A stretch of 64,000 bases of DNA, from assembly GCA_963715195.1 (NCBI GenBank), contig CAVQRT010000031.1, positions 32,001 to 96,000 of the forward strand. Direction: 5' to 3'. The notes under the pieces were generated by a model, which worked only from the letters and a program-made list of their open reading frames with translations, did not search any database and was not told the DNA's origin. This DNA is from Thermodesulfovibrionales bacterium (lineage in GTDB: Bacteria; Nitrospirota; Thermodesulfovibrionia; Thermodesulfovibrionales; SM23-35). Both the position numbers and the translations under genes were made by a program. This document shows, piece by piece, positions 43,461-49,294 of this stretch. The first letter of the stretch is position 1, and every line of letters starts with the position of its first letter.

Positions 43461-44255
43461 TCAGGGTTTTTTTGCCTTGACGTATGCCGAAAACACCATA
43501 TTCTCTACCCCTTCTCCGAAATTCCATCCTCTGATTATTTCATTACTCTTTTCTTTTTCCTTAATTATAGGTTTGGCAAATCCAGCTTTTTGGAGCATCC
43601 TCTTCAGTTCCTCCACGGGAACCGCACCGGTGATTCAGCCACTGTAGGCTTTCTCATTCTGCTTTATCGCTTCAGAGAATTCACCCTTTTTCAGGATATC
43701 CGAGATTGCCAGCCTCCCTCCCGGCTTTAGTACCCTGAATGCCTCCTGGAAGACCGCTTGTTTGTTTGGAGACAGATTGATTACGCAGTTCGATATAATC
43801 ACATCGACTGAATTGTCATCAACAGGAAGATGCTCAATATCTCCGTGCCTGAAATCAACATTCTTAAAGCTGAGTTTTTCTGCATTATCTTTAGCCTTTT
43901 GAACCATTTCCGGCGTCATATCCACTCCGATGACATATCCTTTCTTCCCCACTTTCATTGCGGAAAGAAACGCATCAAAGCCGGCACCACTTCCGAGGTC
44001 AAGAACGTGCTCTCCTTCTTTCAGCTCCGCTATTGCAAGAGGATTACCGCATCCAAGTCCGAGGTTTGCTTCGCCAAGCCCGATCTTCAAATCTTCTTCG
44101 GAATATCCTATAAGTTTTCCCGTTTCGAGAAGGCTCAGAGGTTTTATCTCAGGCGAGCAACATGTTGCGGGCATCGCACAGCATGAACCTTGTGAAGCGA
44201 TATTCGAATAGGTCTTTATCACAAGCTGTTTCAGTTTTGTTTTTTCTTTGTTCAT
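43461..44255 (-). CDS. arsM: Arsenite S-adenosylmethyltransferase with in-frame TGA (probable Sec) at 43635-43637; 264 aa
   Basis: [25 protein letters not shown]; readthrough gives [24 protein letters not shown]...SAYVKAKKP*, a complete ArsM C-terminus. Confidence 0.85.
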
Positions 44256-44266
44256 TATGATCTCAC

Positions 44267-44950
44267 TTATATGATTTCAAAAATATATGCAAGGCTGTAG
44301 TAGATTCCTACCAGAATAAAAATAGTACCAGTCACCTTTTTTGTATAAAACTCAATTCTTGCAATTCTGTAATAGAGATTGTTGATATACCCTGTGCCTG
44401 CTGCGACAAGAAAAGCAAAGAGCAGGACCGGAAGAGCTGTTCCGATCCCATAAATTAATGGGAGCCCTATCCCTGACTGTGCTTTCACTGCAATGGGAAT
44501 CAACCCTCCGAAGAACAGGGCGGCAGACACAGGACAAAATGCAAGGGCAAACAGGATTCCCAGAGGTAGTGAACCAATTGCTCCCTTATCAATCAACTTC
44601 TTTGTGACATCTTCGGATACCGATGGGATAGGTAAGGGTATTCGCAACAGGTCAAGCAGTACCATCCCGACGAGAATCAGTATGATGCCGAGGATTTTGT
44701 TGACATATCTCTGGAGGAAATCCGACAGGATCGGAACATCTACCAATGTTTTCACAATAAGGACACCAAGAACGATGTACGTGAGGCTTCTTCCAATGGT
44801 ATAGAGTATGCCGGATAAGAACACGACATTTTTCTGTGTAATTCTCTGTGATATAAATGATACAGCTGCTATATTCGTAGCCAATGGACAGGGACTGACA
44901 GATGTCAAAATCCCAAGCCAGACGGCTGAAGCCAGTAAGAACAATTCCAT
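44267..44950 (-). CDS. arsG: ArsG-family (DsbD/CcdA-like) aromatic arsenical efflux permease
   Basis: [34 protein letters not shown]; ars context. Confidence 0.75.
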
Positions 44951-44953
44951 TGG

Positions 44954-45538
44954 TTATGTTTCCTTGAGAAATTTTCCTACTTCTTCTTTTACATACTGAA
45001 AGAATTTGTCTTTGTCTCTTACATGCTTCCATACGTCAGTAAGGTTCTTCCAGGTTACTTCCTTATCCTGCTTTACAAGAGAAATCACGAGGGATTTACT
45101 AAATAACTGGTAATCTTGAACATAGTGACGGTTTTCTGCTTCTTCAACATTAATAGGTTTAAATTCAAGTGTTCCGTTCTTCAGCTCGTTTGCGAAGTAC
45201 TGTTCAATGGCTTCTTTTGAATACTTCTCAATAGTCTGACATGTCGAACATCTGAATGTACCATGGAAATAATAGGCAATAACCTTTGCATTTTCAGCCT
45301 TTATTGTGGTTTCAGGCGAAGGAAGAGGCTTCTGTTGTTTCGTTGTAGTTTCTTCTGATGACTGGCTATCCGGGGCCGGTGCAGATTTCTCGGATGTGGC
45401 AATTGTATTGCTCTGTGTTGCTGTGATGTCTGTGGCATTACTTTCACTTCTCGGTGAGAATTCCTTATACATAAGAACCCCCAAACTCACAATCACGAAA
45501 ATGAAGAGCAGACTTTTAATCGTTTTTCTGATATCCAA
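44954..45538 (-). CDS. arsF: ArsF-family thioredoxin-like membrane-anchored protein
   Basis: YYFHGTFRCSTCQTIE, WKNLTDVW; adjacent to arsG. Confidence 0.7.
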   Translation of the reverse strand: MDIRKTIKSLLFIFVIVSLGVLMYKEFSPRSESNATDITATQSNTIATSEKSAPAPDSQSSEETTTKQQKPLPSPETTIKAENAKVIAYYFHGTFRCSTCQTIEKYSKEAIEQYFANELKNGTLEFKPINVEEAENRHYVQDYQLFSKSLVISLVKQDKEVTWKNLTDVWKHVRDKDKFFQYVKEEVGKFLKET

Positions 45539-45557: not shown

Positions 45558-46736
45558 TTATTCAATTATTGCTCCAAAAATTATTCCAGAAATCGTTGCC
45601 ATTATGACAACCAGACATACAAACACAATGGTCTTCTTTGTCCCTATTGCACGCCTGATAACCAGCATGTTGGGTAAGCTCAAAGCCGGACCTGCAAGAA
45701 GAAGGGCCAGCGCAGGACCTTTGCCCATTCCTGATCCAATCAGCCCCTGAAGTATCGGCACTTCTGTAAGGGTTGCAAAATACATGAATGCGCCAACAAA
45801 AGAAGAAAAGAAATTAGCGAAAAAGGAATTGCCACCGACCAGGTTGCGATATACTGTGAAGGGATGATTCCTTCATATCCGACTCTCCCGAGGAGAAATC
45901 CTGCAGCGAGAACGCCGCCTAAAAGAAGAGGCAGGATTTGTAGTGCAAGAATCCAGGATTGCTGTGTCCATTCTTTCAGTTCATCTTTCTTGAACCACTT
46001 TATAAGCATGACTGACAAAGAAAGAGCAAAAAAACCTGTAATCCACCATTTGTAATGATAGATCAGCCACCAGAGATTATGGGTCTCTTCAGGCGGTTTT
46101 CCCCAGTTTGCAAAGACGAGTATTGCGACCATCGAAAAGAAATAGGGGATTGTTTTCCCAAGAGAACGAACCTCTTTGGCATCGCTGAAATCGAAATCTT
46201 CTCCTTCCTGACGTGCTCTCTCCTCTTTCAGGAAGATAAGATGCATCAGGAGTCCGATCACAACACTGAAAACAACCGCACCGATTGCCCTTGCTAATCC
46301 CAGTTCCCATCCGAGTATTCGGGCGGTGAGAATGATAGCCAGCACATTGATTGCAGGACCGGAATAGAGGAATGCGATTGCAGGACCAAGACCTGCTCCC
46401 TCTCTGGTAGATGCCCATGAACAGGGGAAGGATTGTACATGAACATACCGCAAGGATTGAACCTGATACAGAAGCGACCGAGTATGAAAGGAATTTATTC
46501 GCCTTTGCCCCGAAATATTTCATTACCGAAGCCTGGCTGACAAATACCACGATGGCGCCTGCGATGAAGAAAGCAGGAATAAGGCAGAGCAGGACATGTT
46601 CCCGTGCATACCACTTGGTCAATGCAAGAGATTCATTGACTGCATTGGTAAACCGTGCATTCTCGATCGGCAGAAAATAGCAGATGAGAAACACTGTCAG
46701 GACAATCAGAAATTTGTATCTTTCTTTCATTTTCAT
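45558..46736 (-). CDS. arsP: ArsP/DUF318 permease with two 1-nt frameshifts
   Basis: HVLLCLIPAFFIAG, LAVCSCTILPLF, GAGLGPAIAFLYSGPAIN, MYFATLTEVPI, LLAGPALSLP across three frames. Confidence 0.8.
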
Positions 46737-46751
46737 AAAGGCTTTGTACTT

Positions 46752-47811
46752 TCAATCTTGCAATACTCGGTCAGCAAAGTATTTCCTCTGAAAATAGAGT
46801 GCTACATTTACCAGTCCGATTAACACAGGAACTTCTACGAGAGGACCTATAACGGTTGCAAAGGCTACTCCGGAATTAATGCCAAACACTGCTACAGCAA
46901 CAGCAATGGCCAGCTCAAAATCATTGGAGGCAGCGGTAAAGCTCAACGTGGCGGATTTCGGATAATTCGCTCCAATTTTCTTTGCGATATAGAATGTGAC
47001 CAGGAACATAAAAACAAAATATATGAAAAGAGGGATGGCAATCCTTACCACATCAACAGGAAGCTTGATGATATATTCTCCTTTCAGGGAAAACATCACA
47101 AAGATGGTAAAAAGGAGTGCAACAAGGGTAATAGGGCTTATCTTGGGAATGAATTTATCATGATACCATTGCTTGCCTTTTGCGCTGACGAGAGTGAAAC
47201 GGGTGATTATGCCTCCGAGGAATGGTATCCCGAGGTATATGAATACACTCTTGGCAATTTCGCCAATCGTTACGTCAACAACAGCACCGCTAAGCCCGAG
47301 CATGGGAGGAAGTATCGTGACAAAGATCCACGCATAGACTGAATATGTAAGTACCTGAAACAGGGCATTAAAGGCAACCAGTCCGGCAACATAATCTGGG
47401 TCACCGCAGGCAAGATCATTCCATACGAGCACCATTGCGATACAGCGGGCAAGTCCTACAAGGATGATGCCGATCATATAGTCGGGATAACCTGATAGGA
47501 ACAATAATCGCCAGAACAAACATTACAATCGGCCCGACAATCCAGTTCTGGATGAGGCTTACTGCAAGAATCTTATAATTGCTGAAGACCTTTGGCAGTT
47601 CTTCATATCGGACCTTTGCCAGAGGCGGATACATCATCAGGATTAATCCAACAGCTATCGGGATATTGGTTGTACCAACCTGGAAAATGTTCCAGAAATC
47701 GGTAATCTTCGGATAAAAATACCCTGAAATAACCCCAACAGCCATAGCAAGGAAGATCCACAAGGTGAGAAATCGGTCAAGGAATGAAAGTTTTTTCACT
47801 ACTTCAGCCAT
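46752..47811 (-). CDS. acr3: Acr3-family arsenite efflux transporter, one frameshift near 47500
   Basis: [61 protein letters not shown]. Confidence 0.88.
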
Positions 47812-48223
47812 GCTGTACTTCCTTGATAAAATCCAAAAGTCGCTCCTTGATTTCATTTCGGATTCTTCTAAACTCATTCAGTATTTCTTCCTCGGTGCCC
47901 TCAGCCTTTGCTGGGTCTTGAAGAGGCCAGTGAATTCTTGTGATCCCGGGAGGTGTCCATGGGCAGGCTTCAGCAGCATTGTCGCAGAGGGTGATAATAA
48001 CATCCATCTTCTTGAGCAGTTCTTCATCGACTGATTTTGACGTCTGGTTTGAAATATCTATGCCAATTTCTTTCATCACAGCGACAGCACGGGGATTTAC
48101 TCCCTGAGGACTGAGACCAGAGCTGTGTGCTTCAATCAGACCTTTCCCCAATTCCCGTGTAAAGCCCTCTGCCATCTGGGAACGGCAGGAATTCCCTGTG
48201 CATAAAAACATGATTTTCAGCAT
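47804..48223 (-). CDS. arsC: Thioredoxin-coupled arsenate reductase (LMW-PTP fold)
   Basis: [19 protein letters not shown]...[11 protein letters not shown]. Confidence 0.92.
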
Positions 48224-48224
48224 A

Positions 48225-48597
48225 CTACCTCCCGCAGCAACTGCTCCTGAATTTCATCGGAACGACTTTCTCTTCTTTAGATTTGAGAAATTCTTGGAGT
48301 CTTATTTTGTCTGAATGAATTAAATCTCCTGTAGCTTTTTCGATAGTCGAGAAAAGAAGAAACCTCCTGAATATTTCTGAATCATCAAGACGATAATGAA
48401 TCCACTTGCCTACCCTTCTGTCTTTAACAAGTCCCGCTTCCTTGAGTACCCTTAAGATGAAAGGATATTTTCGGCTGAATAATATCAAGCGATGCGATAA
48501 TATCGCATACACAGAGTTCACCATGTTCCAATAGTTTTATTATTCTCAGCCGTGTCTCATCGGAGAGAGCCTTATACACTTGCAAGAGATCTTTCAT
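48225..48597 (-). CDS. arsR: ArsR/SmtB repressor, one extra base near 48450
   Basis: MKDLLQVYKALSDETRLRII...ELCVCDI...ISFHL, then a shift to VLKEAGLV...GKWIHYRL; C-terminal CC. Confidence 0.85.
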
Positions 48598-48598
48598 C

Positions 48599-48838
48599 CT
48601 ATGACTCCTTCTTGAGTAAATCTTTTACTTTTTCAATCGTCGGAAGTGGTTTGCCGGAATATTTCAGCTTGCCGTTTATCACAATCCCGGGAGTGGACAT
48701 CGTATACTTCATAATCTCGAACATGTCTGTAACCTTTTCTACCTTTGCGTCAATTCCAAGCTCCTTAACAGCGGCTTTTACCATCTCCTCTACCTTTTGA
48801 CAATTTGGGCAACCGGGTCCCAATACCTTAATTTCCAT
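48599..48838 (-). CDS. Small redox-active disulfide protein (MTH895/ArsE-like thioredoxin)
   Basis: IKVLGPGCPNC, STPGIVING; first gene of the ars operon. Confidence 0.85.
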   Translation of the reverse strand: MEIKVLGPGCPNCQKVEEMVKAAVKELGIDAKVEKVTDMFEIMKYTMSTPGIVINGKLKYSGKPLPTIEKVKDLLKKES

Positions 48839-48985: not shown

Positions 48986-49294
48986 ATGAAAATTGATTGT
49001 TACCTATCAAGAGGCTGTGCAGCCGAGAGTGTTTTAAGGGAGAACATAAATCAGGCCCTTATCCAAGAAGGTCTGCATGCTGAGGTAAATTATTACAGAA
49101 TATCAGAAGGGGAAGCAGAGAAGCTCAGTCTAAAAGGTTCCCCTTCGATATTGATTGATGGAAGGGATATACAGCCGATGAATGTGCAGGGGTTTTCTTG
49201 AAGAACGTTTATGGATGAGTCTGGAAGGCTCTCGCCAGCCCCTTCTATTGCAACACTGAGGCGTGTTATCAGAGAATCAATAATAAAGACTTAA
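48986..49294 (+). CDS. Thioredoxin-fold protein with in-frame TGA (probable Sec) at 49199-49201; 102 aa
   Basis: GC near the N-terminus, GSPSILIDGRDI, then GFS-U-RTF...PAPS...; the frame stays open for 30 more codons; hairpin GAGTCT-GGA-AGGCTC downstream. Confidence 0.72.

Follow-up and report, generated by a model that had tools for sequence, protein, structure and literature searches.

A predicted selenocysteine-containing ArsM encoded across an in-frame TGA in a Thermodesulfovibrionales bacterium

Introduction

Selenocysteine-containing forms of ArsM are already part of published selenoprotein catalogues. In their accessible parts, the family is described by the model NF008823/PRK11873, with one Sec, the motif UxxG and WP_011987699.1 as representative (PMC13188914, PMC9312934), and it is placed under 'Experimentally verified' with reference to Fomenko et al. 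2007, Science 315:387 (PMC13188914). The available portions of two other sources report eight seleno-ArsM sequences in GOS (PMC2398784) and, across 39 genomes, a total of 41 proteins (PMC5029168); arsenic is unmentioned in PMC1794560. Since seleno-ArsM is thus already catalogued, the gene described here is a further family member and no new kind, and its novelty was overrated in the initial annotation. Our search for literature on a purified seleno-ArsM, which left subscription papers mostly outside, found no title. The enzyme tested by Fomenko and colleagues was reportedly a mammalian Cys enzyme.

For CmArsM of Cyanidioschyzon, the accessible text describes a Cys174/Cys224 pair that binds As, an N-terminal pair that reduces the intermediates, and Cys224 as the residue that last holds DMAs(III) (PMC6138428); the conserved ArsM Cys positions are confirmed in the available part of a further source (PMC5552862). 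The catalogues also list UxxG for multi-Sec fusions with a homologous methyltransferase domain, i.e., ArsM/AhpD (NF041537), ArsM/DUF2284 (NF041536) and methyltransferase/UXPK-star (NF047649).

The window analysed here, a stretch of 64,000 nt from a Thermodesulfovibrionales bacterium, carries an arsM candidate that shares with the catalogued seleno-ArsM family an above-cut-off match to the same HMM, one Sec, the UxxG motif (as U-I-T-G) and a single domain. This likeness is one of HMM, motif and catalogue description, and the difference lies in the host lineage. The multi-Sec fusions, in contrast, have a second domain and two to three Sec, whereas the candidate has no fused domain and a single TGA, and scores 160-174 bits against their cut-offs of 460-575. 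The PDB chains of CmArsM (4FSD, 4KW7), CrArsM (5EVJ) and AS3MT (8XT7) have the same fold as the candidate, which is shorter (264 aa vs. 321-387 aa); Cys72, Cys174 and the Cys224 position of CmArsM correspond to its C69, C157 and U207, so that Sec stands where CmArsM has Cys224.

The arsM gene and its predicted product

The features of the gene on which the argument depends are the following.

43461..44255, minus strand: arsM, 264 aa with the TGA read as Sec
43635..43637, minus strand: in-frame TGA, predicted Sec207 (SG-U-ITG, UxxG motif), at the CmArsM Cys224 position
43785..43787, minus strand: Cys157 (SNCV), equivalent to CmArsM Cys174, predicted partner of Sec207, invariant in 33/33 rows
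43980..44000, minus strand: SAM-binding motif DLGSGAG (residues 86-92), from sequence; PF13847 at 147 bits
44049..44051, minus strand: Cys69 (GCG), equivalent to CmArsM Cys72, invariant in 33/33 rows
44157..44162, minus strand: Cys32-Cys33, by conservation the best candidates for the N-terminal (Cys44-like) Cys

Translation gives 206 aa up to the TGA and 57 sense codons behind it, ending in SAYVKAKKP, which confirms the initial claim that the ArsM frame stays open for 57 residues beyond this codon. The gene closes with a terminal TGA, with a second TGA directly behind it, and contains no indel; a promoter/terminator scan of its vicinity gave no signal above chance. Judged from sequence, this is very probably one intact arsM in which UGA is decoded as Sec. 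Cys157 and Sec207 are the predicted arsenite-binding residues of the 264-residue product, which would methylate arsenite via SAM.

Scored with C substituted for U, the product matches NF008823 (ArsM) with 334.4 bits (cut-off 263), the match spanning positions 2-268 of the 272-position profile. The models for arsinothricin/arsenosugar ArsM stayed below their cut-offs (NF040538, 143 against 500 bits; NF040539, 90 against 240; NF038099, 110 against 400). In alignment with CmArsM, CrArsM and human AS3MT, U207 falls on their 'GECL' Cys, and the proposed equivalence of the TGA with a conserved Cys is thus borne out against solved structures. The DLGSGAG-type motif is known for SAM binding in class I methyltransferases. 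An AlphaFold model built from a 33-row alignment reached a pLDDT of 86, and CmArsM and CrArsM occupied the top 10 Foldseek ranks; it was built with Cys at position 207 and is uninformative on Sec itself. A single-sequence model was discarded (pLDDT 36). Four N-terminal cysteines are present (C25, C26, C32 and C33), of which C32 and C33 are the best conserved, both being kept in 22 of 25 close homologs, with the other three not aligned there. The PDB alignments begin only at residue 67-68, with the N-terminal Cys outside the aligned part, and the Cys32-Cys33 region has a pLDDT below 50 in the model.

Following established Sec biology, SelB carrying Sec-tRNA(Sec) would bind the hairpin 17 nt downstream and Sec would be inserted at UGA codon 207. 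By the CmArsM model, As(III) would then be held by Cys157/Sec207, and methylation would turn it into MAs(III) and DMAs(III); Cys69 and an N-terminal Cys would reduce the arsenic intermediates, and Sec207 would by analogy be the position that last holds DMAs(III) before release. From the gene neighbourhood, one may guess that the thioredoxin-like protein encoded first in the cluster recycles ArsM.

Codon 207 in related sequences

The nearest homologs carry Thermodesulfovibrionales/Nitrospiraceae titles. Of 49 GTDB loci, 18 have TGA and 27 have Cys at codon 207; one locus, a distant methyltransferase, has another codon, and three do not cover the site. Among 61 related genomes, 31 gave a match, with a single TGA in 24 of the 33 matched places, and this TGA is codon 207 in all 23 of those 24 that were fetched. 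Merging both sets (E<=1e-20, site covered, duplicates removed) left 67 distinct homologs, 34 with TGA (the candidate included), 33 with Cys and none with another codon. The TGA is kept down to 55% identity, TAA and TAG never occur at the site, and the frame behind the TGA is open for 46-76 codons in all 34 distinct TGA homologs. These homologs are kin, and the counts therefore reflect one or two lineages rather than independent events. Together with the Cys alignment and the Sec machinery of the host, the retention of the TGA supports the initial reading of a seleno-ArsM with a Cys/Sec pair for arsenic binding. Between the 25 closest sequences (>=64% identity), pN/pS amounts to 0.16 ahead of the TGA and to 0.23 behind it; the 57 codons that follow are under purifying selection.

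An exact database look-up found six of seven TGA-terminated products, all of 204-211 aa, one of them named 'arsenite methyltransferase'. The initial annotation expected pipelines to call such a gene a pseudogene; the form stored in the databases is a truncated protein.

The TGA forms group in Thermodesulfovibrionales and in deltaproteobacteria-type bins. We built a quick tree from the 65 of 67 rows that were long enough, with the Sec/Cys column removed. One branch (SH-aLRT 90, below the starred level) has 31 of 32 TGA rows on one side and no Cys row among them, and this side splits into 23 Nitrospirota-type and eight other rows; the result is compatible with a single origin of the Sec form. 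The remaining TGA row, L096 (G053:C34:28933-29421), is a long branch elsewhere in the tree. It is a divergent ArsM-like gene with a TGA at the same site (WSQ-U-IGGA) and without C69 and C157, and is perhaps a separate family. A TGA form in a bin titled Woesearchaeota (L035) was rejected as an archaeal case and is probably mis-binned: no selA was found in the 0.5-Mb bin, and a Desulfobacteraceae contig matches it over 1917 nt at 99.9% identity.

The selA gene is present in all 23 relatives whose match contains a TGA, and in four of five further genomes tested. Since selA occurs in 56 of the 61 related genomes, finding it together with a TGA form says little; three relatives with selA have a Cys ArsM instead.

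Predicted SECIS element and selenocysteine machinery

The hairpin behind the TGA is the following feature.

43605..43624, minus strand: predicted bacterial SECIS, CGGTTCC-CGTGGA-GGAACTG, 7-bp stem with the 6-nt loop CGUGGA

The hairpin has 17 nt between the UGA and the loop, and G and U at loop positions 2-3. The bSECIS consensus, in the accessible part of its source, comprises a loop of 3-9 nt, a stem of 4-16 bp, a G in loop positions 1-2, a spacing of 16-37 nt and an energy of <=-7.5 kcal/mol (PMC13188914). With 7 bp, a 6-nt loop, G at position 2, 17 nt and -7.9 kcal/mol for the stem alone, the hairpin falls within it, as assessed by our own script coding the published model and not by bSECISearch. 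Position, spacing and loop GU of the initially proposed SECIS thus stood, supported by the consensus and by low synonymous change. The folding energy taken alone gave no support, as it was not unusual compared with shuffles (z 0.02 to -1.01). Among the 25 closest sequences, pS was 0.32 at codons 211-217 and 0.75 in the median; no 6-codon windows between codons 60 and 263 were lower. Pair covariation in 12 sequences, four of them with the hairpin in another register, revealed no two-sided compensatory change.

At -5 kcal/mol, the script accepted 25 of 34 TGA forms and 4 of 33 Cys forms; acceptance among the controls was 31 of 482 for ordinary TGA stops and 104 of 1500 for Cys codons. At -7.5 kcal/mol, with only the ungapped stem scored, it accepted 13 of 34 TGA forms (the other 21 missing the threshold under that scoring) and 1 of 33 Cys forms, and 14 of 482 TGA stops and 37 of 1500 Cys codons among the controls.

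The hairpins occur in two registers one codon apart. Register 1 has a spacing of 17-18 nt and mostly the loop CGUGGA, and is found in 25 close forms; register 2 has a spacing of 20-21 nt and mostly the loop CGGNGA, and is found in eight deltaproteobacteria-type forms. The SECIS is accordingly one codon farther from the UGA in L030, L031, L033-L036, L039 and L041 than in L070-L089 (Nitrospirota), with a similar CG..GA loop, and the peptide behind Sec differs (VPVEEL vs. ISPGEV).

The host genome, 2.8 Mb in 36 contigs with 97.8% completeness and 6.6% contamination, has the Sec machinery that the initial annotation had asked to be looked for: selA (624 bits), selB (356), selD (369) and tRNA-Sec (selC, 73) are all present and over cut-off. 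Its selD carries a single in-frame TGA of its own, with a similar hairpin. A rough genome scan gave 11 candidate read-through TGAs, including the motifs ARYUHS and DPDUPYC, which we take to be those of formate dehydrogenase and of a thioredoxin-fold protein, respectively.

The ars gene cluster

The arsM gene is the last of a minus-strand cluster in the order thioredoxin-like (MTH895/ArsE), arsR-like, arsC, acr3, permease, arsF, arsG and arsM.

48599..48838, minus strand: MTH895/ArsE-family thioredoxin-like protein (CPNC), first gene of the cluster; TIGR00412 at 91 bits, cut-off 62
48225..48597, minus strand: arsR-like regulator in two frames, frame change near 48450 relative to intact relatives
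47804..48223, minus strand: arsC, thioredoxin-type arsenate reductase; TIGR02691 at 179 bits, cut-off 174
46752..47811, minus strand: acr3 arsenite efflux in two frames, TIGR00832 at 324 bits (C-terminal frame), frame change near 47500
45558..46736, minus strand: permease in three frames, frame changes near 46400 and 45850 relative to intact relatives
44954..45538, minus strand: arsF-family protein; NF040494 at 126 bits, cut-off 60
44267..44950, minus strand: arsG-family permease, upstream of arsM; NF040495 at 274 bits, cut-off 200

The regulator at 48225..48597 is presumably arsR-like, a name given from resemblance, and its C-terminal frame alone has no Pfam match. The permease, with weak matches to SaoE/SO_0444 below cut-off, is assumed to be ArsP-like. 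A further extra base lies near 46770, at the end of acr3. At least one of these ars genes lies near arsM in nine of 15 related loci, and none in the other six. A plasmid search gave a best match of 53% identity and none that was close. The same genome has a second copy of part of this neighbourhood (G000:C6:26107-28492; DF-family gene, thioredoxin, arsR-like and permease, at 63-88% identity), in which arsM, acr3, arsF and arsG gave no match.

Alternative explanations

It is very improbable that the TGA is a true stop, whether with a truncated ArsM of 206 aa as the product or with the gene as a pseudogene of an ars cluster in decay. Databases do call the short products, and four frame changes fall within ~3 kb in arsR, acr3 and the permease gene, compared with four in 71 kb of sampled orthologs. 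Against a stop speak the TGA kept in 34 distinct homologs, never exchanged for TAA or TAG over the whole identity range, and the pN/pS of 0.23 downstream; truncation would also lose the Cys224-equivalent residue together with a predicted helix and strand. The frame changes could as well mean that arsM codes for Sec by descent, but that the cluster is inactivated or silent in this strain and no enzyme is made, which we consider unlikely, as arsM, arsF, arsG, arsC and the thioredoxin gene are intact and several observations favour indels introduced locally by the assembly. In this assembly, the matches to a second acr3 and to one copy of tuf are broken up, and a related contig (depth 3, different strain) is one base short at 47507, the acr3 break. 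Genome-wide, three of 67 sampled orthologs have frame changes, all within one 4-kb stretch including trpE and trpD; relative to a related genome, four clustered frame changes lie there in trpE, trpD and a dehydrogenase gene (G000:C2:264266-268512). Since these other frame changes are clustered too, clustered assembly indels are plausible, and the ars frame changes are plausibly of this kind; if they are real, the ars cluster may be decaying in this strain.

Indel-type frame changes elsewhere in the assembly could also raise the suspicion that a TGC or TGT was turned into TGA in sequencing or assembly. The chance of this is close to nil, as the TGA occurs in 33 other distinct homologs from independent assemblies, including all 24 closest, which refutes an error at the family level. 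Among the sequencing runs, none contained half of the sampled words, and no RNA run was listed. Two contigs from the read runs (from four of 23 runs) cross the TGA, one over 547 nt with six differences and one over 715 nt with 27; the TGA is untouched among the differences listed for both, and we do not count this as evidence. Hardly any weight falls on a genome-wide reassignment of UGA to Trp or Gly, or on read-through without Sec, either: 482 ORFs longer than 250 aa end at TGA, the TCA anticodon is found only on tRNA-Sec, with CCA on tRNA-Trp, and all 33 non-TGA homologs have Cys at the aligned residue. An intact arsM with Sec at codon 207 remains our preferred reading.

Implications

The annotation of the gene is corrected by these results: as far as its sequence indicates, the enzyme is very likely full-length and selenium-dependent, and its close relatives are stored as fragments of 204-211 aa that lack one As-binding residue. 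The seleno-ArsM family itself is not new. For any effect of Sec on ArsM catalysis, the Sec and Cys forms make a natural test pair, at a position to which crystal structures assign a defined role.

We put forward only tentatively, and with more doubt than confidence, a broader proposal. It holds that a Sec-ArsM lineage of single origin would be common to anaerobic Nitrospirota and deltaproteobacteria-type bacteria, with no return to Cys in the sample and a SECIS in two registers one codon apart that rewrites the post-Sec peptide; that Sec at the product-release position would alter how fast arsenic is methylated or which products arise; and that truncated annotations would hide these arsenic methylators. 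Both a two-register SECIS in one lineage and a catalytic effect of Sec may be unrecorded so far.

A second likely selenoprotein gene

Another gene likely to encode a selenoprotein (48986-49294, plus strand; TGA at 49199-49201; 102 aa, GFS-U-R) is divergent from the ars cluster, and its product matches NF049942, 'DF family (seleno)protein', with 50.6 bits, below the cut-off of 70. Genome G008 (96% complete) has a DF-family gene with TGA, yet no selA match. Among the 61 related genomes, 27 have matches to this gene, and each of the 30 places matched holds a TGA, its position having been checked for the two copies of the host itself, and a weak hairpin lies at 21 nt in the gene at 48986-49294.
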